Assembly (NCBI GenBank): GCA_036759345.1
Contig: DAIOUV010000006.1
Coordinates: forward strand, 28,438-92,437
From: Acidobacteriota bacterium
GTDB taxonomy: Bacteria > Acidobacteriota > Thermoanaerobaculia > UBA5066
Length of the DNA stretch: 64,000 nt
Direction: 5' to 3'
Shown: piece after piece, positions 5,963 to 39,725 of the stretch
Layout of the letters: each line of letters begins with the position of its first letter
How positions within the stretch are numbered: the stretch's first letter is position 1
Position numbers and translations under genes: made by a program
Notes under the pieces: model-generated
Databases searched by the model: none
The model's input: the letters and a program-made list of their open reading frames with translations, nothing else
What the model was told of the DNA's origin: nothing

Positions 5963-8900
5963 ATGCCTTCAAAGGCGCTCCGGCAATGGACGATTCCGCG
6001 CCGCGATCTCGCGGCCGGCGGGTCGGCGCTCGTGCGGCTTTCCCATCCTCTTCTCCCCGCTTTCATCTCGGCGCGCTCGGGCCCGCAAGGCCTCGTCCTC
6101 GGCCTCGAAGGCGCGCGGCCCGCGCCGCTCGGCCGGCTCGACGCTCGTGCCCGTCGGGCGTACCTCGTGAGGCTTGGCTCGCTCGCGGGATTTCTGTCGT
6201 TCCATGGCCTCGGCGTCGCCGCGGAAGACGTCCGGCTTCTCGGCGCCCGGGACGGTGATGCGGACCGGCCGGCGCTGGGCGCGCCCCCGGCCGCCGCGTG
6301 GCGCGCGGTGCCGCCCGCGCTCGCCGTCGCGGCCGCGGCGTTGCGACTCGCCGGGCGGGACGTGCGGGGCGACGACGCGGAAGCGTTGCGCCGTTCGATC
6401 GAGAGCGCCCTCGATCGCGCCCTGCCGCGCGACGTCACGGAGGACGTTCTCTCCGCGCTTCGCTCGGCGGACACGCGCGCGCGCCCCGAGACTCTCGTCA
6501 GTGAGCTCGCGCGGCGGGGAGACGTGGAGCGCACCGTGTCGCACGATCTGCTCGGTCTCGCGCTTCCGGCCGTATCCGTCGCGCGAGGCGACTCGGCCCG
6601 ACCCGCGGTGGCGGTTGGACCCGCCGCGCTCTGGCTCGCCCGCGGAGCCGCGCGCCGGGACGAGCCGCCCGCGTTCCTGGAGTGCGCATCTCTCTCGGCC
6701 CTCGAGGAGGGGGGCGCGCTTCGTCGGCTCGCCCGTGCTCTCGCCGAGGATCCGCGCGCGGCTTTCGTCGAGGCTCTCGCGGACCGAGCGCGGGCTCCGC
6801 GCTCGGTCGACGGACCTCCCGTCGCGCTCGTCGCGATCTCTCTCGAAAGGTGGGACGGGCGTTCGCGCCGCGCGTTCGAGGAAGAGCTTCCCGCCCTCGG
6901 GTTTCGGCTCTTCGCCACGCGGGCCGCGAGTCTCCGTCCCTGGGAGGAGGCGCCGCTCGTCGCCTTCCGGATGAGCCGCGGCGACGCGGCATCGCTTCTC
7001 TGGCTTCCCTTCGCGTCCGTGCACGACGCCGTGGCCGCGTGGCGCGAGGCGGAAGACGCGGCCGGGGCGACGGATGCGGGCCGCTTCCTCGACGTCGTGC
7101 ACGGACTCGCGGCGCGGTTCGATCCCGCCGAGGGGCGCCTCGGCCCCGCGCGGGCGCGGCCGGCGGTGTCGCGCCATGCGGGTCCCGTGCTCGAGGCGGC
7201 CGCGCTCCTCGCCAGCGGTTTCCGGGCCGCGGAAGCCGCCGGGGCCGCGGGCGTCTCCCTCAGGAACGCGGAAGAGGCTCTTCAGGCGGCCGCGGAAGCG
7301 GGACTCCTCGTGCCCGCCCACGCCGACGAATACTCGTTCCGGGACGACGAAGAGCGCGGGAGGATCGCCGCGCGCGTGCCCGCCTCGGCGCGCCGCGACG
7401 CGGTCGCCCGCCTCGAAGACGCGAATGTTTCGGGCATCACGACATCTCGATTTGCCATCGCGTCACTCGCGCGCGCGAGTGCAGGCGACCTCGCGGCGGC
7501 CCGCCTCGCCCTCGACGCGGCCGTGGCGAACGGAGACTCATCCGCGGCCGCGGAACTCCTCTCGCGCGCCCCTCGGACGGAGCCCGATCTCGGGCGGCCG
7601 CTTCTCGCGGTGCGCGTCCTGCAGGGGGCGGGCCGCCCGGAAGGCGCGCGCGCCGTGGCGGGGCGGATCACCGCCGACATGATCTCCAGCATCCCACTCG
7701 ACGAGCGGCTCGCGACGGCCCGCGCGCTCGTGCGCCTGCGCGAGGAAAGTCGCGCTCTCGCGCTCTGCCCGGGAGGCGCGCCCGAGGAGGACGTCGCGCG
7801 CGCCTGGGTTCTCGTCGAATCCAGACGTGACGCCGAGGCCCGGCGCGTGCTCGAGCGTGCTGCGGCGCGCCTCGCGGGGGCGCCCGTCGCGTTCCGCCTC
7901 CGGGTGAAGCTGCTCGGCGCGGAGCTTCACGAACGCGCGCACGACTACGACGCCGCGGGCGCCGCTCTCGCCGAGGCGGAGGCGCTGCTGCCCGGCGTCG
8001 AGGACGATGGGCTCGCGCGGGAGATGGCGCGCACCGCGGGCTATCTCGCGAACGACCTCGGCCGCACCGACGAGGCGATCGTGCTCTTCCGGCGTGCCGA
8101 GGCGCTCTCCCGCAGCGCGCTGGAGCGCGCGGACTCGACCTACGACGTGGCGTACGCGGCGCTCGACGGCGGCCGGTTCGAGGTCGCGGCCCGGGAGCTC
8201 GAGTCCGCCCTGGCTCTTTATGCCGCGAGCGGGCACGAAGAGCGGTACCTCTCGGCACTCGGGAACCGCATCGACCTCTTCCTTCGGATCGGCGACTTCC
8301 CGGCCGCCCGCAGCGTCCTCGAGCGGGTTCTCGCGCATGAGCGCGCGGGAGGGCGGGACCATCAGGTTCTGTTCGCGATCCCGAGCCTTCAGGAGCTCTC
8401 GCTTCTCGACGGAGACGAGGGCGCGGCGGCGGCGGCGTTCCGCGAGGCCGAGACGCGCGGGGCGTCGAGCCCCCGTCACCCGTCCTGGCGGGAGATTCTG
8501 CTCTTCGAGGCGGAGCGCCTCCTCGCGGCGCCGGACCCGGAGGGGGCTCTCGTCCTTCTCGCCCGGGCTGGGCACCTCCCGGACAACAGCTCCCGCACGG
8601 AGGCGCGCCGGCTGCGGCTCGTGGCCTCTGCCTCGCGCGACGCAGGCCGACCCTCCCGTGAGCGGTCGGGGGCCTTCGCTGCGGACGAGCGTGTTCTTCT
8701 CGACGCCGAGACCGCTCTCGCCTCCGGACGCGCGGTGCCGGATGCCGCGAACGCGGCTCTCGAACGCCTCGCGGCGTCCGGCACGGGCGCCGGAACCGCG
8801 GTCCGGCGCGTTCTCGAGTGGTCCGGCCGCTTTCCGGCATTCTTCGCGACGTCGGTGGCCGGCCCGCTCCTGAGGCTCGCGCGTCGCGTCGCGGCGCGGG

Positions 8901-9910
8901 CGGGCCTTTCGCGCGCCGAGGAGCGCTTCTCGCGGCTGCTCGAGCACGGCGCGCCGCCCGAACCTCCGGGGGTACCGATCGCGGCGCCTCCCACCGTTGT
9001 CGCCGAGGATTTCGCCACGCGCGATCTGTTCGCGAAGGCGGCCCGCGTCGCTCGGTCGACGATCTCGGTACTTCTCCTTGGGGAGAGCGGCACTGGGAAG
9101 GAGATCGTGGCGCGTGAGCTCCACCGCCTCTCGGGCCGGCGGGGACCCTTCCTGGCCGTGAACGTCGCGGCGCTTCCGGGCACGCTCGCGGAGGCGGAGC
9201 TGTTCGGCCACGCGCGCGGCGCCTTCACGGGCGCCGACCGGGACCGGCGGGGTCTCGTCGAGGAGTCGTCCGGTGGAACGCTTTTCCTCGACGAGATCGG
9301 CGACCTGCCGCTCGCCCTCCAGGGCAAGTTCCTGCGCGTCCTCCAGGAAGGCGAGGTCAGGCGGCTGGGTGAGACCGCCGTCCGGCGCGTCGACCTCCGC
9401 GTACTGGCAGCGACTCACCGCCCCCTCAAGGAGATGGCCGAGGCGGGTTCGTTCCGGATCGATTTGTACTTCCGCCTGGCCGGGCTCGAGCTCGAGCTGG
9501 CTCCTCTCCGGAAGCGTCCAAGGGATCTCGCGCGGCTCATCGAGGTGGCTCTCACAGGACGCGCGACGCTGGCGCGTGAGGCGGCGGCCGCCCTCAGGGC
9601 ATGGCCGTGGCCGGGAAACGTGCGCGAGCTCCTCGCCGCTCTCGAGGCCGCCGTGGCGCTCGCGGCGCCCGGACACGTCATCGGCCTCGAGCAGCTTCCA
9701 CGCGCCCTGCGCGAGAGGAGCACGGCGCCGGCCGGCGCGGGGTCCTATCAGGACGCGCTCCGGGCGGCGCGTCTCACGGCCATCGACGGGGCGCTCCAGG
9801 CGGCCGGGGGAAACCGGACTCGCGCGGCCCGCGCGCTCGGAATCTCGCGCCAGTCGCTGCTGTACGAAATGAAGAAGCTGGAGATCGATGCGCCGCGCGG
9901 TGGACGCTAG
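5963..9910 (+). CDS. sigma-54-dependent transcriptional activator (bacterial enhancer-binding protein) with ~1000-aa Ala/Leu-rich helical (TPR-like) N-terminal region
   Basis: C-terminal AAA+ sigma-54 interaction module ([23 protein letters not shown]) and Fis-type HTH ([22 protein letters not shown]). GGGAGGA SD 8 nt before the ATG. No receiver domain seen. N-terminal extent is less certain. Confidence 0.65.
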
Positions 9911-16274: not shown

Positions 16275-16750
16275 TTCGTTCTCCCCGCCCCGGGCACGCG
16301 TCCGAGGAGCGCCTTGAGCTCGTCCACGAAATCTCCGAGGTCTTCGAACCGGCGGTACACGGACGCGAAGCGCACGTAGGCCACCTGGTCGAGCTCCTTG
16401 AGCTTCTCCATGACCTGCGCGCCGAGCTCGGCGGTTGTCATCTCGCGGGGCTCGCGCGCCGAGAGCGCCGCCTCGATCTCGTCACAGACGGCTTCCAGCG
16501 TCGTCGTCTCGACGGGCCGCTTCTCGCAGGCCTTCATGAGGCCCCGGAGGAGCTTGTTGCGGTCGAACGGCTCGCGTCGGCCGTCCTTCTTCACGACGAG
16601 GAGCGGGATCTCCTCGACGGTCTCGTACGACGTGAAGCGGCGCTGGCAGGCATTGCATTCCCGCCGCCGGCGGATGACCGCTCCTTCGCGGCTTTCGCGC
16701 GAGTCGACGACCCGGTCATCGCCCACGCCGCAATACGGGCAGCGCATCAA
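16271..16750 (-). CDS. nrdR: transcriptional repressor NrdR
   Basis: MRCPYCG…CNACQRRFTSYE zinc ribbon plus ATP-cone. ATGA overlap with the upstream fusion gene stop. Confidence 0.9.
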   Translation of the reverse strand: MMRCPYCGVGDDRVVDSRESREGAVIRRRRECNACQRRFTSYETVEEIPLLVVKKDGRREPFDRNKLLRGLMKACEKRPVETTTLEAVCDEIEAALSAREPREMTTAELGAQVMEKLKELDQVAYVRFASVYRRFEDLGDFVDELKALLGRVPGAGRTK

Positions 16751-19700
16751 GCCCCGCGACTTCCGCGCAGCTTCTCGAGCGTGATCATCTGCTCGATCGT
16801 GCGCAGCGTCAGCTCCGCCTCGCCGAGCTCGCGGAGCCCCGACCAGTCGCGCCGCAGCTCACGCGAAAGCGAATCGGGCAGCGTTCGGAGCCAGCCCTCG
16901 ATCCTGAGGTCGACGAACTCGCGTTTCTCCTCGATCGTCAGCTCGCGCGCGAGCAGCAGGCGGCCGGCCTCCTCCGCGTCGATGACCGTCTGGAGCACGT
17001 TCCACCGGCTGCCGGGACGCTCCGCGCACAGAGCGGCGAACGCACCGCTGCTCGTCTCGCGGATCAGCTCCTCCTCGCGCGTGGTCATGCTCTCGTGCTC
17101 CTTCGGCTCGTCCCAGCTGTCGGAATCTTCCGCGATGTACCGCAGGTACAGCATGGCGAACAGGCACGTCGGTTGGACGAGTTCCTCGCGCACGCGGGCG
17201 TCGGCCCAGAGCGCCGCCGCGGCGCGCAGGCACCGTTTCGCCGTCGTCTCGGCCAGGCGCTTGCCGAAGACCAGCGCCACCGACTCGCTCACGAAAAAGC
17301 TCAGCTCGCTCGCGATGATCTCCCGGTATCCCGGCACGTGCCGCTCCAGGAGGGTCGCGGCGCGCCGGTCGATTGCCGCGAGGTCGCTCGTGACGGCGGG
17401 GAGCCCGAGCGTCGTGCAGCCGAGGTTGTAGTTGATCGCCCGCGGCAGCGTCACGCCCTCGGGCCATGCGTCGCGCAGATCGCGGTTGCCCGGCAGCTCC
17501 CGGCCCCCGCCCCACTCCTCGGGATATTCCGGGATCGAGCGGCCGTAGTTGACGGAGCCGGTCGCGCGGATCCGCACGCGGGTTTGCGGGACGAGCCCGC
17601 TGAACGGCGCGAGGAGCGGGGCGATCCGGAGCAGCGTCTCGGTGTGCGCCTTGACGCCCGCCTCGAGGAGCTTGAGCAGGGACTCCCGGTCCGCGGCCCC
17701 GAGGGTCGGCGCCGCGCGTTTCATGGCGACCGCGGCGCGGAACTTCGACGCGAGTCGCTCGGCCTCGGCCGGTGCGTCGGCCCTGATCCCCTGCATCGTC
17801 ACGCCGTCCGCGCGCGCGAACTGGGCGATCACACCCTCGTGATCAGGGTCGAACCCGCCGCGGAATCCGGCCCGGCCCGCGCCGACGAGGAACGTCACCG
17901 AGGGTGCGGGCTGCTTGATGCGCCGGGCGCGCGCGGCGAGGCGGTGCTCGGCTTCGCGCCTCCCCGCGACCGTGAGTGTGTAGGCCGCGTCGGTCGCGAT
18001 CTTGCCGCTCTGCTCGGCCGTGTCGGACATCGCGACGAACACCCTCACGGTCGCCCCGGTCCCGTCGTAGCGCGTCCTAAAGCCGCCCGGTCCCGGAAGG
18101 TCCGCGGCACCGCGGCCCCTTTCGAGCGCCTGGTAGTAGCCCTCGAGGAGGTCGGGCATGTGCGCGAGAGCGCCGACGTTCTCGACGAGCGGCACGAGGC
18201 GGACGCGCGACACCCGCGAAGACAGCTCCGCGCGACGCGCCTCGGGGATGCGTTCTGAGAGGAACGCATCGATCCGCTCCGGCAGGCCGCGGAAAAGGCC
18301 TTCGACCGCTTGGAGGTAGAGCGTGCCGATCTTGACGACCGCACCGAGCTCCGTGAGCGAGTTGACCTGCGGCACGGTCAGCTCGTAGATCGCGTTCTGG
18401 ACGGGCTCGATCCCCAGCCGTTCGCAGGCGAGAAGGAACAGGAAGTTGGCCCGCGCGACGGCCGCGAGGATCTTGGAGATCTTCTCCTCGTCCTGTTCGA
18501 GCCAGGGATTCGGCACGCGGAAGAGGAGGTGGCGGTCCTGGCCGGGGACGATGCCGTGCCGGAGCAGCGTGAGAACGACTTTCTCGGGGACCTCCAGCCA
18601 GTCGGGGCTGATCTGCCGGCCCTCGTAGTCCAGGAGGACCTCCGTGCACGGCCCGAGAAGGTCGGCAATCGTCTCCTCGAACTCCTGGCGCGCCTCGACG
18701 AGCGGGTTCCACTCGAGGTGCGTCAGCGCGCGTTCCGCACGGTCCGCTGTCCCTTCCGGCGCGGAGCGCAAGGCGCGCGCGAGCTGTTCGGCGCGGTGCT
18801 CCGTGGAGTCCGGGTGCTTTGTCCCGGTCAGGCGCAGCGTCTCGAGGCGCGGATGCTCGAGGAAGCGGCGCCGCGCCGCGGCGAAGGCCGGAACGTCGAG
18901 GGCGTCGAGCGCGGCGTACCCGGATTCCGTGCACACGCTGAACCAGACGGCCTCCTCGATCGATCGCTTTCCCTCATGCGGCAAGGGCGCGCTCGAGCCC
19001 GCATGACCCCGACTCTCGATTCGGGCACGCACGCGGTCCATGAAGACCGCGAGCTCGCTCACGTCCTTCGAGCCATAGGACAGGCGCTGCCAGGTCCCAT
19101 AGCGGGCCGGGTCGCTGCCGGCGAAGGCCGCGAACGGGATGCCTCCGACGCCGCCCGTGAGGAGGAAATCGAAAGCGTCCACGGAGGTCTTCACCACCGC
19201 CCGCTCGCGGACGCCATTCCGGAGCCGTTCGAACGACTCGCCGACGAGCCCGGGAAACGCGAGCGGCGAGTAGAACGTGCCGCCGAAGTCGGTGCGCGTC
19301 ACGCCGAGATGGGCGAGCGCGTCCGCCGCCTGAATCATGAAGTCGCGCCGCTCGCGCATGTACGGGGAGGGGCGCCGGAGCGTCGCGAGCGGGCTCTGCA
19401 GCGCGGCGAGGGCCCAGTCCTGCGCGAGCGTCGAGGGCGTCGCGACGAGCCACGCCGAGAGGTTTGCGACGATCTCCCGCGCGCGCACGCCGCCGGTCTT
19501 GATCTGGTCGGACAGCACCATCCAGCACGCGCGCGTGCCGGTCGACGCCCCGAACATGTCCATCTTCGACAGGCCGGACAGCGTGACCACCCAATCGCGC
19601 CACTCGGGGTCGGCGAACGCCGGGTTGACGAACGAGCCGACATAGTCGAGGCGCTGGTAGACCGAGTCGTAAAGCACATACACGCGGTGCTTCGCCGCCA

Positions 19701-20289
19701 CGCGTATGAGCTCCTCGACGAGTGCACGAGGGTAAACGCGTCCGGTCGGATTGTGCGGGTTGTTGACGATGACCGAGGAAATCCCACCGCCCTCGAGCAG
19801 GCGCTCGAGCTCCGCAGGATCGGGCAGGAAATCAGGCGGCGTGGTCGGCAGCTCGACGACGTGCTTGCCGGCGCGCTCGATGAACCAGTCGTATTCCCAG
19901 CTCGGACGCGGTACGACGACGCCGGAGCCGTCGGCGCCGAGCACCTCGAGCACCATCGCGAGGCCCGAGCGCGTGCCGGGCGTGAAAATGACCTCGTCGG
20001 GCAGGAAGCGGACGTCCGAGGCGGGATAGTCGAGAAGGCCATCGCGGTTGAAGAACTCGGCGATCTCGCTGCGCACGTCCATCCGGCCCACGGCGGGCCC
20101 GTAGCTGTGGACGGTATTGCGCGTAATGCGCTGCGCCGCCCGGACGACCTCGGGGTGCGGCGCGAAGTCCGCGTTCTTGTAGTCGCCCTGCGTGAGGTCG
20201 AGCGCGCCCTCCTGCTGCACGCGACGCGCGAAGGCGCGCACCAGCGGCTCGGGGGTCGAGAGCGCGCGCGTGGAAAGGCTCTGGGACAT
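16747..20289 (-). CDS. fusion protein: N-terminal class I/II PLP-dependent aminotransferase + C-terminal archaeal-type phosphoenolpyruvate carboxylase (PepcA-like)
   Basis: One uninterrupted 1180-aa ORF. Residues ~1-430 carry the aminotransferase signatures NNPHNPTG, LYDSVYQRL and SGLSKMDMFGASTGTR (PLP lysine). Residues ~480-1180 carry atPEPC-like motifs TGTKHPDS (MSTQHPD-like), DYEGRQI, FRVPNPW, VRLVPLVENVGA and the Gly loop GAGRAGFRGGFDP. Confidence 0.7.
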   Translation of the reverse strand: MSQSLSTRALSTPEPLVRAFARRVQQEGALDLTQGDYKNADFAPHPEVVRAAQRITRNTVHSYGPAVGRMDVRSEIAEFFNRDGLLDYPASDVRFLPDEVIFTPGTRSGLAMVLEVLGADGSGVVVPRPSWEYDWFIERAGKHVVELPTTPPDFLPDPAELERLLEGGGISSVIVNNPHNPTGRVYPRALVEELIRVAAKHRVYVLYDSVYQRLDYVGSFVNPAFADPEWRDWVVTLSGLSKMDMFGASTGTRACWMVLSDQIKTGGVRAREIVANLSAWLVATPSTLAQDWALAALQSPLATLRRPSPYMRERRDFMIQAADALAHLGVTRTDFGGTFYSPLAFPGLVGESFERLRNGVRERAVVKTSVDAFDFLLTGGVGGIPFAAFAGSDPARYGTWQRLSYGSKDVSELAVFMDRVRARIESRGHAGSSAPLPHEGKRSIEEAVWFSVCTESGYAALDALDVPAFAAARRRFLEHPRLETLRLTGTKHPDSTEHRAEQLARALRSAPEGTADRAERALTHLEWNPLVEARQEFEETIADLLGPCTEVLLDYEGRQISPDWLEVPEKVVLTLLRHGIVPGQDRHLLFRVPNPWLEQDEEKISKILAAVARANFLFLLACERLGIEPVQNAIYELTVPQVNSLTELGAVVKIGTLYLQAVEGLFRGLPERIDAFLSERIPEARRAELSSRVSRVRLVPLVENVGALAHMPDLLEGYYQALERGRGAADLPGPGGFRTRYDGTGATVRVFVAMSDTAEQSGKIATDAAYTLTVAGRREAEHRLAARARRIKQPAPSVTFLVGAGRAGFRGGFDPDHEGVIAQFARADGVTMQGIRADAPAEAERLASKFRAAVAMKRAAPTLGAADRESLLKLLEAGVKAHTETLLRIAPLLAPFSGLVPQTRVRIRATGSVNYGRSIPEYPEEWGGGRELPGNRDLRDAWPEGVTLPRAINYNLGCTTLGLPAVTSDLAAIDRRAATLLERHVPGYREIIASELSFFVSESVALVFGKRLAETTAKRCLRAAAALWADARVREELVQPTCLFAMLYLRYIAEDSDSWDEPKEHESMTTREEELIRETSSGAFAALCAERPGSRWNVLQTVIDAEEAGRLLLARELTIEEKREFVDLRIEGWLRTLPDSLSRELRRDWSGLRELGEAELTLRTIEQMITLEKLRGSRGA

Positions 20290-20305: not shown

Positions 20306-20911
20306 TCAGGTGCGGCCGAACGGGAACGGAATCACGTCGCCGTCGCCGGGCGCCTGGGGCTGCTCCACGGCGGCGGGACGGTCCGCGCGCGCGCCGCGCC
20401 GCACCTCGAGAATCAGGTCGCACAACTCGCGCACCGCTCCGGCGCCTCCGGGCTTCGTCAACTGAAGAGTCGCGGCCTCCCGCACGATCTGGACCGCGTC
20501 GGATGGAGCCGCGCCGACGCCCGCGCGCCGCAATATCCCGAGGTCCGGCAGATCGTCTCCGACCGCCACGATCTCGAACGCGTCGAGCGACCAGCGCTTC
20601 GCGAGGAGGTCGAACGCGGCCACCTTGTCGCGTTCGCCCTGCAGGACGTTCTCCTCGGGGATCTTCAGCTCGGCGCACCGGTGCGCGACGACCTTCGACG
20701 AGCGGCTCGAGATGATGCCCAGCCTGTAGCCGAGGTCGCGCAGCAGGACGAGGCCGAGGCCGTCCTTCACGTCGAACGTCTTCCACTCGCGCCCGTTTTC
20801 GTCGAACGTCATCGAACCGTCGGTCAGGACGCCGTCCACGTCGAGGACGATCCCGCGGATGCGCGAGAGGCGGGTCCGGAGGTCGTCGGGAACGATCGGA
20901 TTCGCGGGCAT
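20306..20911 (-). CDS. kdsC: 3-deoxy-D-manno-octulosonate 8-phosphate phosphatase (HAD family)
   Basis: IRGIVLDVDGVLTDG…FDVKDG…AVGDDLPDL matches the KdsC HAD signature. Confidence 0.8.
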   Translation of the reverse strand: MPANPIVPDDLRTRLSRIRGIVLDVDGVLTDGSMTFDENGREWKTFDVKDGLGLVLLRDLGYRLGIISSRSSKVVAHRCAELKIPEENVLQGERDKVAAFDLLAKRWSLDAFEIVAVGDDLPDLGILRRAGVGAAPSDAVQIVREAATLQLTKPGGAGAVRELCDLILEVRRGARADRPAAVEQPQAPGDGDVIPFPFGRT

Positions 20912-20940: not shown

Positions 20941-21918
20941 CTAAATCGACTCGATTCCCCACAGGTCGTGCAGGTGCAGGATCCCGGACGGTTTCCGATC
21001 GGCGTCGAGCACGAACAGCGACGTGATCTTCCGCTCCTCCATGAGCCGAAGCGCCTCGGCCGCGAAAGCGGTGGCGACGATCGACTTCGGTGTGCGGCCC
21101 ATCGCGTCGGCGGCCGTGTCGCTCATGATCTTCGGCCCGTCCCTCTCGAGGAGGCGGCGAACGTCGCCGTCCGACACGACCCCCACGAGCTGTCCGGCCG
21201 CGTTCGTGACGCCCGTGATGCCGAGGCGCTTTCGCGACATCTCGTAAACGACGTCCTTCATGGCCGCGGACTCCGGCACGAGGGGGATGGCCTCTCCCGT
21301 GTGCATGAGGTCGGCCACTTTCAGGAAGCGCTTGCCCAGCTTTCCGCCGGGGTGCAGCGCCGCGAAGTCCTCGGGCTGGAAGCCCTTCTCGACCGAGAGC
21401 GCCATCGCGAGCGCGTCGCCCATGACGAGCTGGGCCGTCGTGGAAGCCGTGGGCGCGAGGTTGAGCGGGCAGGCCTCCTCGCGGATGACGACCGGGACGA
21501 CGACGTCCGCGCCTTTGCCCAGCGTCGAATCCTTCCGGCCGGTCATCGCGACGAGCGTCGCCCCGCGGCGCTTCACGTGGGGGATCAGCGCGACCACCTC
21601 CTCCGTCTCGCCCGAGTGCGAGAGCGCGAGCACGACGTCGCCCTTGAGGATCATCCCGAGGTCGCCGTGGATCGCCTCCGACGGGTGGAGGAAGAACGCG
21701 GCCGTGCCCGTCGAGGCGAGCGTCGCGGCAATCTTCTGGCCCACGATGCCGCTCTTGCCGATGCCCGTCACGACGACGCGGCATGAGCTGGCGGACGTCG
21801 CCTTCATGGCCTCGACCGCGCGGTCGAAGCCTTCGTCGAGGCCGTCGGCGAGGCCGCGCACGGCCTCGGCCTCGGTCTCGATCACGCGGCGGGCTTCCCG
21901 CCGGGCGGACGTGGTCAC
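20941..21918 (-). CDS. kdsD: arabinose-5-phosphate isomerase (SIS + CBS domains)
   Basis: VVTGIGKSG…SHSGET SIS motifs plus a C-terminal CBS pair. Confidence 0.85.
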   Translation of the reverse strand: MTTSARREARRVIETEAEAVRGLADGLDEGFDRAVEAMKATSASSCRVVVTGIGKSGIVGQKIAATLASTGTAAFFLHPSEAIHGDLGMILKGDVVLALSHSGETEEVVALIPHVKRRGATLVAMTGRKDSTLGKGADVVVPVVIREEACPLNLAPTASTTAQLVMGDALAMALSVEKGFQPEDFAALHPGGKLGKRFLKVADLMHTGEAIPLVPESAAMKDVVYEMSRKRLGITGVTNAAGQLVGVVSDGDVRRLLERDGPKIMSDTAADAMGRTPKSIVATAFAAEALRLMEERKITSLFVLDADRKPSGILHLHDLWGIESI

Positions 21919-21930
21919 TGGAGGACGATC

Positions 21931-23874
21931 TTACTTGCTCCGGCCGAGAAGCACCGTCTGTGCACCCGTCGCGGGGTCGAGGCGGACGAGACGCCCGTTG
22001 GCGTCGAGGAAGAGCGTCGAGGCAGCGGAGCCCGCTTCAGCGGGCGGTAGAGGTGCGCTCCACCACGAGAAGCGGTCCGCCGGAACCAGACCCTCGAGGG
22101 AGGAAATGACCATTTCCGCGCTCATGTCGACGACGGCCAGCTTCCATGCCTTTCGTGCCCTTTCGTCATTGCCTCGAAATGGATTGAGGGCCACGGCGAC
22201 GCGCCCGGGTGCGATTTCGCCTCCGAGGACGACGCTTGCAGCGGGGCCAAGCTCGATCGCGCGGGCGGGCGCCTTTTCACCTTCGAAGAAGAGCAGCCTC
22301 GCCGACGCTCCGGCAATTCCGGCGACGACCATGCGGCCCCCCGAAAGGAAGCGCATCTTCGGCGCCTCGAGATCCTTGGAGAGCGTTGCGAGGAGCGCGC
22401 CCGTCCGGCCATCGTGGAGCGTGAGGAGTATGTCCAGCGTGCCGACGAGGTATCGCCCGTCCGCGCTCATGCGCAAATAGGGAAGCTTCTCGCGTTCGAA
22501 GCGGCCGGAAACGGAGGATTTCTTCGAGGGCAGGGAGAACTCCTCGATTTCGAGCCCCGGCGCCGCGATGTCCTTCCGGTTTGCCGAGTTGAAGACGTGG
22601 GGAAAGAGCCGAACCCTGTCTTCGCCGACGAAGGCGAAGGACCTCGAATCGCTCTCGACGCGAATCGCCGCGAGCTGTTTCGGGTTCGAGGGGTCCGAGA
22701 TGTCGTAGGCAGCGAGCGAGTTGTCGTCGAGGATCGCGAGTTCCCTGCCGGAAGGCGAAAGCGCGACGCGGCACCACACGCTGCACGTGAGGCCCGTTTC
22801 GACGGCTTTCGCCGAGGCGAGATTTGCCACGAAGAGGTCCGACTTCCTTTCCCTTTCGAAGAATCCGAATCTCTCCTCCGTCCACGCTGCCCGCGCGCCG
22901 TCCGCGGAGAAGACGGCATCACCCGACCGGATCCGCTGGGAGCGATTGCCCGTGGTGTCGACGAGGAAGAACCCGGCGCCTCGGCCCGCGCGGAGCGGGC
23001 CGCCGAGCGCCACCCAAGGGCCCCGGGGCGCCGTCATCACGCCTCCCCCGACGGTCTCCAGATCCGTCGCCTGTGCGGACGCAACCCACGACGCATATCC
23101 TCCGAGCGCCGCCGTCGCGGTTCCGAGGATCCCCCACAGGACGACGGAGAACGCGCCATGCGCGCGGCGCGAGTCCGTCCGGCCTGCGGCCACCTGCGCG
23201 TAACTGCCCGCGGCGAGGGCGGCAAGGAGGACGAAGGCCGCCAGGCCGACGAGGCGCGGAATCAGGTCGAACGTCGTCGAGAAGAAGAGGGAAGGGATGA
23301 GGCCGTCCCTCACGAGGGAGCGCAAGAAAGCCGCGGAGAGGAGGACGAGGGCCGGCGCGAGGAGGAGGTCGAGCGCGACCCACGGCGAGCGCAACCGGGC
23401 GATCGTGACGACCGCGTGCGCGCCGAGGATGAGGAAGAGCGTGACGAGGAAGAGGCCGAGAACGCCCCACGGAGCGCCTCCTAGCTGAAGGACGTTCTGG
23501 TTTGCCCTGGTCGAGCTGGTGGCGAACGCGGGCACGAGCGCAAGAGCCGCTGGAACGAAGGTGAGGAAGAGGACCGCGAGAAGCTTGCCGCCCCAGATCG
23601 CGCCGGCCGGGAGGGGGCGTGAGAAGAAGAAGGAGATCCGCTTCTCGGACGTTTCGCCCGCGATGACGGAGCCTCCAAAGAGGAGCGCGAATGCGAAAGA
23701 GAAGGCGGCGGCCGCGACGAGGGCCGCGAGGACTCGAAACTCAGCCGCGCCGGGCTTCGACCAGCCGTTCGCAAGGGACACGACGATCGGCATGAATCCC
23801 GCGGCAAGGGCGACGGGGAAGACGAGGCGGCGGGCGAAGATCTCGCGCGCGAAGACGGCGGCGAGGGCTCTCAT
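21931..23874 (-). CDS. ABC-2-type transporter permease fused to a large C-terminal periplasmic beta-propeller-like domain
   Basis: ATG at 23874 (MRALAAVFAREIF…) overlaps the upstream ATPase stop as ATGA. 6 TM helices, then ~400 aa of soluble beta-rich sequence. The ORF-track N-terminal 245 aa are nonsense. Confidence 0.6.
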   Translation of the reverse strand: MRALAAVFAREIFARRLVFPVALAAGFMPIVVSLANGWSKPGAAEFRVLAALVAAAAFSFAFALLFGGSVIAGETSEKRISFFFSRPLPAGAIWGGKLLAVLFLTFVPAALALVPAFATSSTRANQNVLQLGGAPWGVLGLFLVTLFLILGAHAVVTIARLRSPWVALDLLLAPALVLLSAAFLRSLVRDGLIPSLFFSTTFDLIPRLVGLAAFVLLAALAAGSYAQVAAGRTDSRRAHGAFSVVLWGILGTATAALGGYASWVASAQATDLETVGGGVMTAPRGPWVALGGPLRAGRGAGFFLVDTTGNRSQRIRSGDAVFSADGARAAWTEERFGFFERERKSDLFVANLASAKAVETGLTCSVWCRVALSPSGRELAILDDNSLAAYDISDPSNPKQLAAIRVESDSRSFAFVGEDRVRLFPHVFNSANRKDIAAPGLEIEEFSLPSKKSSVSGRFEREKLPYLRMSADGRYLVGTLDILLTLHDGRTGALLATLSKDLEAPKMRFLSGGRMVVAGIAGASARLLFFEGEKAPARAIELGPAASVVLGGEIAPGRVAVALNPFRGNDERARKAWKLAVVDMSAEMVISSLEGLVPADRFSWWSAPLPPAEAGSAASTLFLDANGRLVRLDPATGAQTVLLGRSK

Positions 23875-24836
23875 GCGTTCCTCCCGGGAGACGCTTCGCC
23901 CGCGATGGCGACGAAAATCTCCTCGAGCGACAGGGCCGAGGCCTCGGCGTCCACGACGCCCTCGAGGGCGGCGAATTTCGCGAAGGTCTCGTCGCCGTAG
24001 TTCGAGACGACGGCCTCGACGCCCCAGCCCCGCACCTTCACCTTCACGGCGTCGAAGTCCGAAAGCTCCTGGCCGTACCTCGTGGGATTCTCCGTCGCCT
24101 CGTTCGCGTAGCGCAGGCGTCGGAAGCGCGACTTCAGCGCCTCGAGGTCCTCGTCGAGGATCAGCCGCCCGCCCTTGAGCATCCCGACATGCGTCGCCAT
24201 GCTCTCGACGCCGGTGAGGTCGTGCGACGTGAGGAGCACGGTCGTCCCGCGGTCGGCCAGCTCGCCGACGAGCTCCTCGAAGAACGCGCGCCGCGCGACC
24301 ACGTCGAGGCCAAGCGTCGGGTCGTCGAGGACGAGGAGCTCGGGGGAGGACGCGAGCGCGAGCGCGAGGGCGACGAGCGCCCGCTGGCCCTTCGAGAGGT
24401 TGCCGTAGGGCGTCCCGGCCGGCACGCCGAAGCGCGCGAGGCGGGCCTCGACGGCCGGCGCGTCCCATGTGGGATAGATCCTTGCGCAGAATGCCGAGAG
24501 CTGGCGGGCGGTCATGGACGGGGGCGCGTCCGGATCCTCGGGGACGACCCCGACCTTCGCCATCAGGCGCGCACGGCGCTTCCACACGTCCTCGCCGAAG
24601 AGGAAGCACCGGCCGGCCGTGGGCTTCTGCTGGCCGAGGAGGCAGCGCACGAGCGAGGACTTGCCGGCGCCGTTGCGGCCCAGGAGCGCATACACCGAGC
24701 CTTTTGGAACAGAGAAGGAGATTTCTTCGAGTGTGGGTTTCGCGTCACGGCCGTAGCGAACGACGAGACTCCCGACCGACACCACCGCCGTGGACGCGCC
24801 GGCCGCGGTTTTGGCGGGCGAGGGATTCGCGCTCAT
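23871..24836 (-). CDS. ABC transporter ATP-binding protein
   Basis: Walker A GRNGAGKSS, ABC signature LSKGQRA, Walker B LLVLDDPT. Confidence 0.85.
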   Translation of the reverse strand: MSANPSPAKTAAGASTAVVSVGSLVVRYGRDAKPTLEEISFSVPKGSVYALLGRNGAGKSSLVRCLLGQQKPTAGRCFLFGEDVWKRRARLMAKVGVVPEDPDAPPSMTARQLSAFCARIYPTWDAPAVEARLARFGVPAGTPYGNLSKGQRALVALALALASSPELLVLDDPTLGLDVVARRAFFEELVGELADRGTTVLLTSHDLTGVESMATHVGMLKGGRLILDEDLEALKSRFRRLRYANEATENPTRYGQELSDFDAVKVKVRGWGVEAVVSNYGDETFAKFAALEGVVDAEASALSLEEIFVAIAGEASPGRNA

Positions 24837-28287: not shown

Positions 28288-29127
28288 TCAGGATCCGGTC
28301 TTCCGCCTCAGCGCGTCGAAGGCGAGGAGATCCGAAAGGAACTTCGGCAGCATCGCGAGCGGGAGCTGCGTGGCCCTGTCGGACTTCGCGTGCGCGGGGT
28401 CGTCGTGGACTTCGAAGAAGTAACCGTCGACGCCGACCGACGCCGCCGCCCGCGCGAGCGCCGGCGCGTATTCGCGCGAGCCGCCCGTCTCGGTCCCGAG
28501 GCCCCCCGGGAGCTGGAGGGAGTGCGTTGCGTCGTAGATCACCGGGACGCCGAGAGACCGCATCATGGGCAGGCCGCGGAAGTCCACGACGAGGTTGTGG
28601 TACCCGAAGCTCGTCCCGCGCTCGCAGAGCATGACGTTCGAGTTTCCCGCCGCGTGGCACTTGTCGATGATCTGTTTGCAGTCGTCGGGCGCAAGAAACT
28701 GGCCCTTCTTGACGTTCACGGCCTTCTTCGTCGCCGCGGCGGCGAGGATGAGGTCGGTCTGACGGCAGAGGAACGCGGGGATTTGTAGGACGTCGGCCAC
28801 CTCGGCCACGATGGCGCAGTGCTCGGGCTCGTGGACGTCGGTCAGGATCGGGAGGTCGGTCTTCTCCTTCACTTCCGACAGGATCGAGAGCCCCTTCTCG
28901 AGGCCCGGCCCGCGAAAGGAGGCCCCGGCGCTCCGGTTCGCCTTGTCGAACGAGGACTTGTAGACGAGCCGGTCGGCGACTCCGGCGTCCGTGAAGATCT
29001 TTTTCAGCACTTTCGCCATTTTCAGGGCGTGCGCCCGCGACTCGATGACGCACGGGCCCGCAAAAAAGACGGGACGGCAGCGGTCCCCGACGGAAAGGTG
29101 CGGCGTGATGGAGGCGAAGACCTTCAC
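28288..29127 (-). CDS. kdsA: 2-dehydro-3-deoxyphosphooctonate aldolase (KDO-8-phosphate synthase)
   Basis: GTG start (VKVFAS…) aligns with the E. coli KdsA N-terminus. KSSFDKANRS, LTDVHEP, GLGTETGGSRE motifs. 279 aa. Confidence 0.9.
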   Translation of the reverse strand: MKVFASITPHLSVGDRCRPVFFAGPCVIESRAHALKMAKVLKKIFTDAGVADRLVYKSSFDKANRSAGASFRGPGLEKGLSILSEVKEKTDLPILTDVHEPEHCAIVAEVADVLQIPAFLCRQTDLILAAAATKKAVNVKKGQFLAPDDCKQIIDKCHAAGNSNVMLCERGTSFGYHNLVVDFRGLPMMRSLGVPVIYDATHSLQLPGGLGTETGGSREYAPALARAAASVGVDGYFFEVHDDPAHAKSDRATQLPLAMLPKFLSDLLAFDALRRKTGS

Positions 29128-36886: not shown

Positions 36887-39592
<2,706 letters not shown>

Positions 39593-39725
39593 CCGCGCCC
39601 GTGGGCGCGTCAACGACCGCCGGGCTGCGCCTCGAGACTCCCGAAAGAGTCGTCGTCACCGGCCCCCTCTGGCGGGTCGATGACGACTTGAAGAGGATGG
39701 AGAAGGAGGGATTCGGGGGAGCCCG

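Follow-up and report, generated by a model that had tools for sequence, protein, structure and literature searches.

A single gene joins an aspartate aminotransferase-like enzyme to an archaeal-type PEP carboxylase

In the window, i.e. the whole 64,000-nucleotide stretch of Acidobacteriota DNA that was analysed, positions 16747-20289 are a real and strongly conserved gene in which an aspartate aminotransferase (AspAT)-like enzyme is joined to an archaeal-type phosphoenolpyruvate carboxylase (PEPC). We suggest, with a probability of roughly 60%, that the product is one bifunctional polypeptide that would convert PEP and HCO3- to oxaloacetate and oxaloacetate to aspartate, and we infer both enzymatic activities from the sequence.

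16747..20289, minus strand: fusion gene, 1,180 codons plus TGA stop (ORF and translation, both Pfam domains, GC3)

The ORF extends from the ATG at 20289 to the TGA at 16749-16747 and comprises 1,180 codons with no interruption. GC3 is 0.90 across the entire ORF, and neighbour genes have similar values. The plus-strand translation of 16747-20289 has many stops; the first-pass annotation had given no strand. The first-pass annotation had described a single 1180-aa ORF that encodes two enzymes with no stop between them, and this ORF is indeed unbroken in independent assemblies, with neither a frameshift nor a stop separating the two halves. All motifs on which that description was based are present in the translation: NNPHNPTG (residues 176-183), DSVYQRL (208-214), and SGLSK (238-242) in the aminotransferase half, and TGTKHPDS (488-495), DYEGRQI (554-560), FRVPNPW (590-596), VPLVENV (699-705), and GAGRAGFRGGFDP (803-815) in the PEPC half. 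Moreover, PF00155 and PF14010, the Pfam domains that it had proposed to look for, were both found above their cutoffs, the latter (PEPcase_2) in the C-terminal half. Thus, domain scans, the nearest structures (Thermus thermophilus (Tth) AspAT and 3ODM), and the conserved architecture agree with an aminotransferase followed by an archaeal-type PEPC.

We also considered that two separate genes might have been joined by an assembly, frameshift, or gene-calling artefact. We found nothing in favour of this explanation, yet long spurious ORFs are common in DNA of 69% GC, as exemplified by an 801-aa ORF on the opposite strand of the fusion region. However, independent assemblies (JGI, NCBI, and Logan) contain the exact fusion protein sequence on 20 contigs, and >120 clusters of full-length proteins at 77-96% identity have both domains; therefore, chance, frameshift, and chimeric assembly are ruled out. 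The uniform GC3 and purifying selection on the junction region also argue against an artefact, the probability of which is negligible. The 20 identical contigs together with at least 132 genomes with the same unbroken architecture refute it.

The closest solved relatives of the aminotransferase half are subgroup-Ib AspATs

The features of the N-terminal half are as follows.

19015..20253, minus strand: aminotransferase domain, aa 13-425, class I fold, subgroup-Ib AspAT-like (PF00155, Tth AspAT match)
19564..19566, minus strand: K242 codon, lysine predicted to form the PLP Schiff base (SGLSK); aligned to the catalytic Lys in Tth AspAT (AAKAF); invariant
19969..19971, minus strand: R107 codon (TPGTRSG); aligned to K101 of Tth AspAT (chain numbering); invariant
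19084..19086, minus strand: R402 codon (WQRLSYG), predicted alpha-carboxylate-binding Arg; by-eye match to 'vRLSfa'; invariant

PF00155 matched aa 30-326 with 115.6 bits (cutoff 19.7), and the match stops at profile position 287 of 361. By sequence comparison, the closest solved relatives of this half are subgroup-Ib AspATs and prephenate/aspartate aminotransferases: the top PDB match is Tth AspAT 1BJW (E 2.6e-28), and further solved relatives are P. furiosus 1XI9, Arabidopsis PAT, T. maritima AspAT, Phormidium AspAT, and Asp/prephenate aminotransferases. Although subgroup-Ib AspATs (COG0436 family, which includes bifunctional Asp/prephenate enzymes) are the best match in sequence and fold, the aminotransferase half is about 25% identical to them, has a divergent small domain as well as insertions of 3-7 residues, and is covalently attached to a PEPC. 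The structure model of this half is low in confidence.

The aminotransferase half has kept the N, D, Y, K, and R that bind PLP in subgroup-Ib AspATs, their stacking Trp, and their Arg for the alpha-carboxylate. In the alignment with Tth AspAT, the residues that bind PLP correspond to N180, D208, Y211, K242, and R253; the half also contains W131 and R402, and all seven residues are invariant in 15-61 fusion-family members. Because the HMMER alignments end before R402, its predicted role is assigned at the level of the motif, i.e. by eye to 'vRLSfa', which class I aminotransferases conserve close to their C-terminus. R107 aligns with Tth AspAT K101 (K109 in the literature numbering), the residue for recognition of the acidic side chain in subgroup Ib; a role of K109 in this recognition was reportedly described in 1998 and 1999. 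In the PDB mutant chains 1b5o, 5bj3, and 1gc3, the R107-equivalent position is S. At the predicted recognition position, subgroup-Ib AspATs have Lys and the fusion has Arg, and an Arg for Lys at this distal-carboxylate site would be chemically compatible with recognition of Asp and Glu. Altogether, the aminotransferase half looks catalytically competent.

No NCBIfam equivalog cutoff, those for AspATs included, was reached by the aminotransferase half (asp_aminotase_Arch, 84.6 vs 550; PRK06107, 67.1 vs 617). The best matches overall were GntC (111.6 vs 415) and AlaAT (105.2 vs 534), and because the top matches differ in specificity (GntC, AlaAT, Tyr aminotransferase, AspAT), a specificity for aspartate and oxaloacetate is suggested rather than established. 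Both halves could be active in an uncoupled manner, with an aminotransferase of another specificity (prephenate/aromatic, alanine, or broad glutamate-linked) and a fusion that serves co-expression or co-regulation. The close structural relatives of this half, among which are prephenate, aromatic, and alanine aminotransferases, are in line with this scenario, as is the multi-specificity of many subgroup-Ib AspATs. We nevertheless consider it unlikely: a true AspAT is the closest in sequence among the solved relatives, the Arg at the position for acidic-substrate recognition is invariant, the only product of PEPC, oxaloacetate, is itself a 2-oxo acid, and the fusion is intact in >130 species of several phyla, for which consecutive reactions are the simplest explanation.

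A long, divergent subtype of archaeal-type PEPC forms the C-terminal half

The features of the C-terminal half are as follows.

16750..18963, minus strand: PEPcase_2 (archaeal-type PEPC-like) domain, long subtype, aa 443-1180 (PF14010, AF2/Foldseek)
18808..18822, minus strand: T-K-H-P-D box, aa 490-494, counterpart of the canonical TQHPD (family alignment)
18181..18183, minus strand: E703 codon (VPLVENV), counterpart of E. coli PEPC E506, a metal ligand (hhalign); invariant
18022..18024, minus strand: D756 codon (AMSDTAE), counterpart of E. coli PEPC D543, a metal ligand (hhalign); invariant
17845..17883, minus strand: Gly-rich loop GAGRAGFRGGFDP, aa 803-815, with R810 as the counterpart of E. 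coli R587 (hhalign)
17440..17442, minus strand: R950 codon (LPRAINY), conserved PRAI motif; R950 and I952 invariant
16750..17169, minus strand: C-terminal helical region, aa 1041-1180 (alignment, pLDDT, dN/dS)

PF14010 matched aa 530-1013 with 119.7 bits (cutoff 25; profile positions 23-440 of 493), and in the AF2 model of aa 441-1180 pLDDT is mostly 80-96. The best Foldseek match of the model is PepcA of C. perfringens (3ODM; E 7e-19, target-normalised TM 0.77); the PEPC half has the fold of archaeal-type PEPCs (PepcA/atPEPC), to which the Sulfolobus and Methanothermobacter enzymes also belong. All columns that are invariant in 11 canonical atPEPCs are retained and invariant in the fusion family, including the motifs TxHPD, DYEG, RxPN, PLVE, SDTA, GxGxxxFRG, RxR, PRAI, and the RGSxG end. 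T490, H492, P493, and D494 do not vary between the fusions, the long forms, and canonical atPEPCs; H492 is presumably the catalytic His, equivalent at the motif level to E. coli H138 (TAHPT). In the Gly-rich loop, G803, G805, F809, R810, and G811 are invariant. The mapping to E. coli residues was done by hhalign of the PEPcase_2 alignment versus E. coli Ppc, and we take R950 to be equivalent to E. coli R713. Based on these residues, the PEPC half looks catalytically competent.

With 116.9 bits, the PEPC half does not reach the TIGR02751 equivalog cutoff of 146.05 bits. It has large insertions, is only 24-33% identical to canonical atPEPCs, which score 380-480 bits with PF14010 as opposed to 120 for the fusion, and represents a divergent long subtype. 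Described atPEPCs are single-domain subunits of 55-60 kDa (PMC8100219). The fusion departs from these: within a protein of 1,180 aa, its PEPC domain comprises about 740 aa, compared to 500-545 aa in canonical atPEPC, contains four or five insertions, and is extended in the C-terminal region. This C-terminal region (aa 1041-1180) contains an insertion of roughly 75-100 residues that is absent from canonical atPEPC, ends in the RGSxG(A) tail conserved in the family, and has a pLDDT of about 90, except for residues 1062-1079, and a dN/dS of 0.08-0.12. Unfused long-form PEPcase_2 proteins also exist, i.e. P0163 (905 aa), P0166 (930 aa), and P0239 (1037 aa; Candidatus Micrarchaeota, MBI4399801.1). 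They share with the fusion a G/A-T-K/P-HP box, an insertion of roughly 45 residues after the box, and an IPQxN motif, and have similarly low Pfam scores (85-120 bits). In contrast to the fusion, they lack an aminotransferase and have short N-terminal extensions unrelated to that of the fusion; their identity to the fusion is 20-25% over the alignment and 26-29% over matched stretches.

Because of the low scores, the low identity to canonical atPEPCs, and the several large insertions, which are clade-specific and shared with the unfused 905-1037-aa long forms, the PEPC half could have diverged to another PEP-dependent or related reaction, in which case the aminotransferase would aminate that product in a specialised enzyme. 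Retention of all canonical atPEPC invariant residues (metal ligands, the Arg of the Gly-rich loop, and the C-terminal tail), the match in fold to 3ODM, and the lack of conserved neighbours of a biosynthetic-cluster-like kind make this improbable, and we favour an ordinary PEPC reaction.

Both halves are under purifying selection

The two domains are connected by a short segment.

18964..19014, minus strand: variable linker, aa 426-442 (SRGHAGSSAPLPHEGKR), 17 residues (low conservation, dN/dS, pLDDT)

Conservation falls to 0.43 at aa 421-450, and pLDDT is low at aa 431-440. Both halves are under purifying selection with dN/dS values of 0.04-0.14 for the aminotransferase half and 0.13-0.22 for the PEPC half, compared to 0.2-1.0 for the linker. 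Of all parts of the protein, the aminotransferase half is conserved best, with a mean pairwise identity among 77 fusions of 84% vs 73% for the PEPC half.

These values bear on the idea that an ordinary PEPC carries the aminotransferase-like half as a regulatory or scaffolding domain without catalytic activity, e.g. for sensing of aspartate or glutamate. Pseudo-enzyme domains usually lose the residues for catalysis and for cofactor and substrate binding. In the fusion, neither the PLP lysine nor any residue that binds cofactor or substrate varies, and the half that would be regulatory has the lowest dN/dS. In favour of this idea, large malic enzymes, which belong to the PEP-pyruvate-oxaloacetate node, provide a precedent with their fused PTA-like domain, and atPEPC is known to be inhibited by aspartate (PMC8100219). 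Like the fusion, large malic enzymes combine an enzyme of this node with a second enzyme-derived domain; however, their PTA-like domain is inactive and regulatory while the aminotransferase domain of the fusion retains every catalytic residue. We consider a purely regulatory role very unlikely.

A proposed route from PEP to aspartate in one polypeptide

In our preferred reading of a bifunctional enzyme, the C-terminal PEPC-like domain (aa 443-1180) would convert PEP and bicarbonate to oxaloacetate and phosphate, and the N-terminal AspAT-like domain (aa 13-425) would convert oxaloacetate and glutamate to L-aspartate and 2-oxoglutarate. Oxaloacetate is unstable and normally low in concentration. 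Because the fusion, with its flexible 17-residue linker, would place the two active sites close to each other in a fixed 1:1 stoichiometry, oxaloacetate may be captured as aspartate rather than decarboxylate or feed other pathways, and the irreversible PEPC step would drive the reversible transamination forward. The retained catalytic residues fit this chemistry, as does the Arg at the acidic-substrate position of subgroup-Ib AspATs. These two reactions also follow one another, in this order, in aspartate-forming subtypes of C4 photosynthesis and in bacterial anaplerosis; there, however, they are carried out by separate proteins with a bacterial/plant-type PEPC (PF00311), whereas the fusion would use one polypeptide with an archaeal-type PEPC.

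Distribution and gene neighbourhood

Hundreds of proteins conserve the architecture, which occurs in many uncultured bacteria of soil and sediment. As the first-pass annotation had proposed to look for the fusion in related genomes, we note that the same full-length protein is present in at least 132 species-representative genomes of several phyla with 69-96% identity and always as one ORF. The 80 fusion genomes listed are all MAGs, with labels that include Acidobacteriota, Gammaproteobacteria, Myxococcota, Chloroflexota, and others. The suggestion that this architecture was undescribed holds for the literature, in which our search for an aminotransferase-PEPC fusion found no description and no experimental study, but not for public databases, which already contain it under the automatic names 'aspartate/methionine/tyrosine aminotransferase/phosphoenolpyruvate carboxylase' (JGI) and 'phosphoenolpyruvate carboxylase' (NCBI).

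Beside the fusion in relatives, we found no conserved partner gene, and the occurrence in at least 132 genomes without such a partner fits a self-contained central-metabolic function. By Pfam, the gene order in the window is KdsD (SIS+CBS), a KdsC-like HAD protein, the fusion, NrdR, Hsp20, Lon, and ThiL, all on the minus strand, as had been proposed for the position between kdsC and nrdR-hsp20-lon-thiL. Two further kds genes lie elsewhere in the window.

about 28288-29100: kdsA
38804-39613: kdsB

The surroundings of kds, nrdR, hsp20, and lon are kept only in relatives that are ≥93% identical and are gone in all relatives below about 93%; we therefore read no functional message from this context. 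The 4-nt overlaps noted previously exist for nrdR/hsp20/lon, but kdsC and the fusion are separated by a 16-nt gap, and the fusion-nrdR junction is TGATG, provided that nrdR starts at its own ATG. In the source genome, the fusion may be co-transcribed with the KDO and heat-shock genes.

A single uninterrupted ORF encodes the fusion

The fusion ORF runs for 1,180 codons without interruption on the minus strand, from an ATG at 20289 to a TGA at 16749-16747. The first-pass annotation had placed a single ORF at 16747-20289, as is the case, but had left its strand unstated; translation of 16747-20289 on the plus strand gave stops throughout. All of the motifs from which it had read an aminotransferase joined to an archaeal-type PEP carboxylase (atPEPC) are found at defined positions in the translated fusion:

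aa 176-183, minus strand, aminotransferase motif NNPHNPTG
aa 208-214, minus strand, aminotransferase motif DSVYQRL
aa 238-242, minus strand, aminotransferase motif SGLSK
aa 488-495, minus strand, PEPC motif TGTKHPDS
aa 554-560, minus strand, PEPC motif DYEGRQI
aa 590-596, minus strand, PEPC motif FRVPNPW
aa 699-705, minus strand, PEPC motif VPLVENV
aa 803-815, minus strand, Gly-rich PEPC motif GAGRAGFRGGFDP

Because spurious long ORFs are frequent in DNA of 69% GC (the complementary strand here carries one of 801 aa), the length of the fusion ORF is by itself no proof. GC3 is 0.90 along the ORF, like that of the adjoining genes, and Pfam detects Aminotran_1_2 (PF00155) at aa 30-326 with 115.6 bits (cutoff 19.7) and, in the C-terminal half as had been proposed, PEPcase_2 (PF14010) at aa 530-1013 with 119.7 bits (cutoff 25). 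The exact 1,180-residue sequence is present on 20 contigs from independent assemblies, including JGI 3300001394 and 3300001402, NCBI GCA_900291685.1 and Logan SRR3985396, with unchanged neighbours in the four places listed among these contigs; these assemblies give one uninterrupted ORF with neither stop nor frameshift between the halves. A homologue search returned 416 matches, and 119 of the best 120 are two-domain proteins of 1,122-1,242 aa with 77-96% identity. The exception, P0074 (984 aa, 96% identical, PF14010 only), lacks approximately 200 N-terminal aminotransferase residues in its annotation, which could reflect a short gene call or a sequencing error instead of a naturally unfused protein. 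Finally, a species-level scan, with a single genome for each GTDB species, identified at least 132 genomes encoding a relative. We consider the probability that the fusion is an artefact to be negligible.

The fusion consists of two constrained halves and a relaxed linker

Three parts of the fusion emerge consistently from conservation, selection and the AF2 model:

aa 13-425 (approximate), minus strand, aminotransferase half
aa 426-442, minus strand, linker of 17 residues, SRGHAGSSAPLPHEGKR
aa 443-1180, minus strand, PEPC-like half

In pairwise comparisons of 77 full-length fusions, identity averages 84% over the aminotransferase half and 48% at aa 431-485; the averages for the PEPC core and for the C-terminal 140 residues are 73% and 74%, respectively. 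Both halves are under purifying selection and the linker is relaxed, with dN/dS against close relatives of 0.04-0.14 for the aminotransferase half, 0.13-0.22 for the PEPC half, 0.08-0.12 for the C-terminal region and 0.2-1.0 for the linker. AF2 modelled the full-length protein confidently from about residue 441 onwards (pLDDT mostly 80-96). The aminotransferase half was modelled poorly (pLDDT 30-70) because the admissible alignment rows there were all 74-97% identical, and a run on this half alone brought no improvement (mean pLDDT 62.8); Foldseek TM values of about 0.4 for these low-confidence models are weakly informative.

The aminotransferase half resembles subgroup Ib AspAT

The best solved relative of the aminotransferase half is the subgroup Ib AspAT of Thermus thermophilus (E 2.6e-28), followed by P. 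furiosus 1XI9, S. mutans 4MY5, the Arabidopsis Asp/prephenate aminotransferase and the AspATs of T. maritima and Phormidium; the low-quality AF2 models gave the same ranking by structure. In HMMER alignments to the T. thermophilus enzyme, N180 (NPxNPTG), D208 and Y211 (YDSVYQ) and W131 match their counterparts, K242 occupies the position of the Schiff-base lysine and R253 that of the phosphate-binding residue. Because these alignments end at residue 342, R402 (WQRLSYG) is assigned at motif level, as a fit to the alpha-carboxylate arginine of the conserved 'RLSfa'. All seven residues are invariant in family alignments of 15 and 61 sequences. That this half might be a regulatory pseudo-aminotransferase is very improbable, given that the PLP lysine is invariant and that dN/dS is the lowest in the protein.

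As for substrate specificity, the counterpart of R107 (TPGTRSG) in the T. thermophilus enzyme is the GGKQ lysine, K101 in chain numbering and K109 in that of the literature. In subgroup Ib, K109 is said (by Nobe in 1998 and Nakai in 1999) to recognise the distal carboxylate of Asp/Glu, and the 'mutant' T. thermophilus AspAT chains in the PDB carry Ser at the exact position aligned with R107. An Arg at this site appears compatible with dicarboxylic substrates. Because the aminotransferase half lies below every NCBIfam equivalog cutoff and its top NCBIfam matches are of mixed specificity, we regard specificity for Asp/OAA as likely rather than established. A genuine aminotransferase of another specificity, fused for co-regulation, would suit these mixed matches and is a possible, if unlikely, alternative.

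The PEPC half is a divergent relative of atPEPC with intact conserved columns

The sole solved sequence relative of the PEPC half is C. perfringens PepcA (3ODM, E 1.7e-9), which is also clearly the best structural match of the AF2 model (E 7e-19, TM 0.77), ahead of maize, Arabidopsis and E. coli PEPC. When 1.84 billion 50%-identity representatives were searched exhaustively, only 131 matched, among them a single full-length protein of the fusion family (P0121, 65% identity) together with many family fragments, three unfused PEPcase_2 proteins of 905-1037 aa (long forms; 26-29% identity) and canonical atPEPCs of 500-545 aa (24-33% identity). With PF14010, canonical proteins score 380-480 bits, compared with 85-120 bits for long forms and fusion alike; the fusion is also under the TIGR02751 equivalog cutoff (116.9 vs 146.05 bits). 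The columns that never vary among the fusions, the long forms and 11 canonical atPEPCs are all intact in the fusion:

T490/H492/P493/D494, E536, E550, D554/E556/G557, R591, P640
P700/L701/E703, R749, S755/D756, G762, G803/G805/F809/R810/G811, Q833
R904/R906, R917, R950/I952, P964, C-terminal G1179

By profile-profile alignment, E703, D756 and R810 correspond to E506, D543 and R587 of E. coli Ppc, which are the two metal ligands and the arginine of the Gly-rich loop, respectively; outside the region covered by hhalign, equivalences to E. coli residues are putative. With these columns intact, a diverged reaction of the PEPC-like half, for which the low family scores might speak, is improbable.

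The extra length of the PEPC half consists of insertions: approximately 45 residues after the HPD box, others at about 661-690 and 721-745, and, just before the conserved C-terminal tail, a helical stretch of roughly 75-100 residues. The long forms resemble the fusion in the post-HPD insertion, an IPQxN motif and their low Pfam scores, and may be the sister group of its PEPC half. They are P0163 (905 aa), P0166 (930 aa) and P0239 (1037 aa; MBI4399801.1 from Candidatus Micrarchaeota).

The fusion is widespread and its genomic context is not conserved

On the minus strand the gene order is KdsC-like HAD, fusion, nrdR, hsp20, lon and thiL. The first-pass gene map was right except for a 4-nt overlap between kdsC and the fusion, where there is a 16-nt gap. 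The stop of the fusion and the likely start of nrdR overlap as TGATG, so that NrdR would begin MRCPYCG; the '4-nt overlap' comes from the TTG start of nrdR in the mechanical ORF list, which is probably incorrect.

20306-20911, minus strand, KdsC-like HAD phosphatase adjoining the fusion
16740-16750, minus strand, TGATG overlap of fusion stop and likely nrdR start
20941-21918, kdsD
28288-29100 (approximate), kdsA
38804-39613, kdsB

From the species scan, 80 loci with full-length or contig-truncated copies (69-96% identity) were kept; all 80 listed genomes are uncultured MAGs. Their labels include Acidobacteriota (Thermoanaerobaculia, Holophagales, Vicinamibacteria), Myxococcota, Chloroflexota, Eisenbacteria, Gammaproteobacteria (Steroidobacteraceae, Nevskiaceae, Lysobacterales), Methylomirabilota and Actinomycetes, at least six phyla overall. 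By tblastn, the window's neighbour genes are present only beside fusions of at least 93% identity (L005, L006, L027, L063 and L074), with none within 6 kb in the other 75 loci, and all-against-all clustering of flanking ORFs gave no family common to more than 8 of the 80 loci. Therefore, the context is uninformative on function, and we rejected an operon-based link to KDO or heat-shock genes; the fusion gene behaves as a self-contained unit.

In a neighbour-joining protein tree, sequences group largely by taxonomic label, the window's fusion lying in a Thermoanaerobaculia-labelled clade adjoining L074, L005 and L006, and the GC content of the fusion tracks that of its flanks across loci (r = 0.85). 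Both observations argue against recent horizontal transfer or mis-binning as the source of the cross-phylum identity, and we conclude that the multi-phylum spread looks real and old. Older transfers with strong constraint fit better, and the unusually strong conservation across phyla (69-96% identity) reflects such constraint.

One Holophagales-labelled clade (L018, L020, L023, L030, L037, L039, L051, L052, L059, L069, L081) has an amino-acid-metabolism neighbourhood that is specific to this lineage: a class-V aminotransferase approximately 275 bp upstream of the fusion on the same strand (8 loci), an EamA transporter upstream (7 loci) and a PLP-dependent group-II decarboxylase downstream (5 loci).

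A proposed route from PEP to aspartate

We propose, with a probability of roughly 0.6, that the fusion has a coupled PEP-to-aspartate function, as had been raised in the first-pass annotation. The PEPC half would turn PEP and bicarbonate irreversibly into oxaloacetate, and the AspAT-like half would convert oxaloacetate and glutamate to aspartate and 2-oxoglutarate. This two-step scheme is the most economical reading; we infer the activity of each half, its substrates and any channelling. Because class I aminotransferases function only as dimers and atPEPCs assemble into tetramers as dimers of dimers (PMC4927141, PMC8100219), a tetramer bearing two aminotransferase dimers is geometrically plausible as a predicted arrangement. 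In C. perfringens atPEPC, aspartate competes with PEP as an inhibitor (PMC8100219); similar inhibition of the PEPC half would provide built-in product feedback.

We also considered that the fusion is a channelled 'aspartate synthase' or else that its divergent PEPC-like half performs non-classical chemistry. As an 'aspartate synthase', the fusion would have its aminotransferase dimers docked on the PEPC tetramer and receiving oxaloacetate without release, and several uncultured phyla would depend on it, mainly or exclusively, to obtain oxaloacetate-derived carbon and aspartate from PEP. Either would account for the 69-96% identity across phyla; even taken jointly, we hold the two to be unlikely.

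If the coupled activity is real, a single natural polypeptide would make aspartate from PEP, bicarbonate and an amino donor, and would link irreversible, anaplerotic CO2 fixation to the point where the aspartate family of amino acids begins. The fusion would then represent a new subtype at the PEP-pyruvate-oxaloacetate node, a naturally occurring system in which to examine proximity or channelling of labile oxaloacetate and a ready-made module for engineers of aspartate-derived products.

Relation to known systems

Both halves score above their Pfam cutoffs; compared with characterised proteins, however, the PEPC half lies outside the strict equivalog and size limits of atPEPCs and the aminotransferase half reaches no equivalog level. 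Therefore, the fusion would work like a PEPC and an AspAT while being a standard member of neither characterised family. A 2020 review of the PEP-pyruvate-oxaloacetate node describes atPEPCs as single-domain subunits of 55-60 kDa (PMC8100219), and a study of horizontal transfer in PEPC gene families makes no mention of the fusion. The first-pass annotation was not aware of a description of the architecture. We found no published description in the full-text literature searched, which covers few subscription journals, and such absence is no proof; the architecture itself is no new sighting, because public pipelines already label the protein. JGI names the protein 'aspartate/methionine/tyrosine aminotransferase/phosphoenolpyruvate carboxylase' and NCBI 'phosphoenolpyruvate carboxylase' only (e.g. 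HEX7614123.1). Because of the latter name, reconstructions may miss an aspartate aminotransferase or misjudge anaplerosis in abundant uncultured soil and sediment Thermoanaerobaculia, Holophagales, Vicinamibacteria, Steroidobacteraceae and others. The fusion joins two familiar reactions and introduces no new principle; it is a clean, testable and potentially useful case.

Other features of the window

No tRNA genes and no Rfam families at gathering threshold were found in the 64-kb window (1-64000), and a promoter and terminator scan gave nothing above chance. Three further features were observed:

21931-24609, minus strand, ORF without Pfam match directly upstream of kdsD
5963-9910, plus strand, sigma-54-dependent activator of 1,315 aa
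31497-36877, plus strand, two-subunit 2-oxoacid:ferredoxin oxidoreductase, then ADP-forming acyl-CoA synthetase

The ORF upstream of kdsD is 892 aa long at its maximum and 647 aa as called by JGI, and the true gene is probably at about 21931-23870; because it is 45-63% identical in relatives whose other neighbours are 84-97% identical, it is fast-evolving. In the sigma-54-dependent activator, Pfam matches (Sigma54_activat, AAA lid, HTH_8) are confined to the last 300 residues, with none in the approximately 1,000 N-terminal residues. The oxidoreductase subunits carry Fer4 with POR_N/PFOR_II and then TPP_enzyme_C with POR, and the synthetase carries ATP-grasp_5, CoA_binding_2 and Succ_CoA_lig, a module typical of anaerobic 2-oxoacid fermentation.
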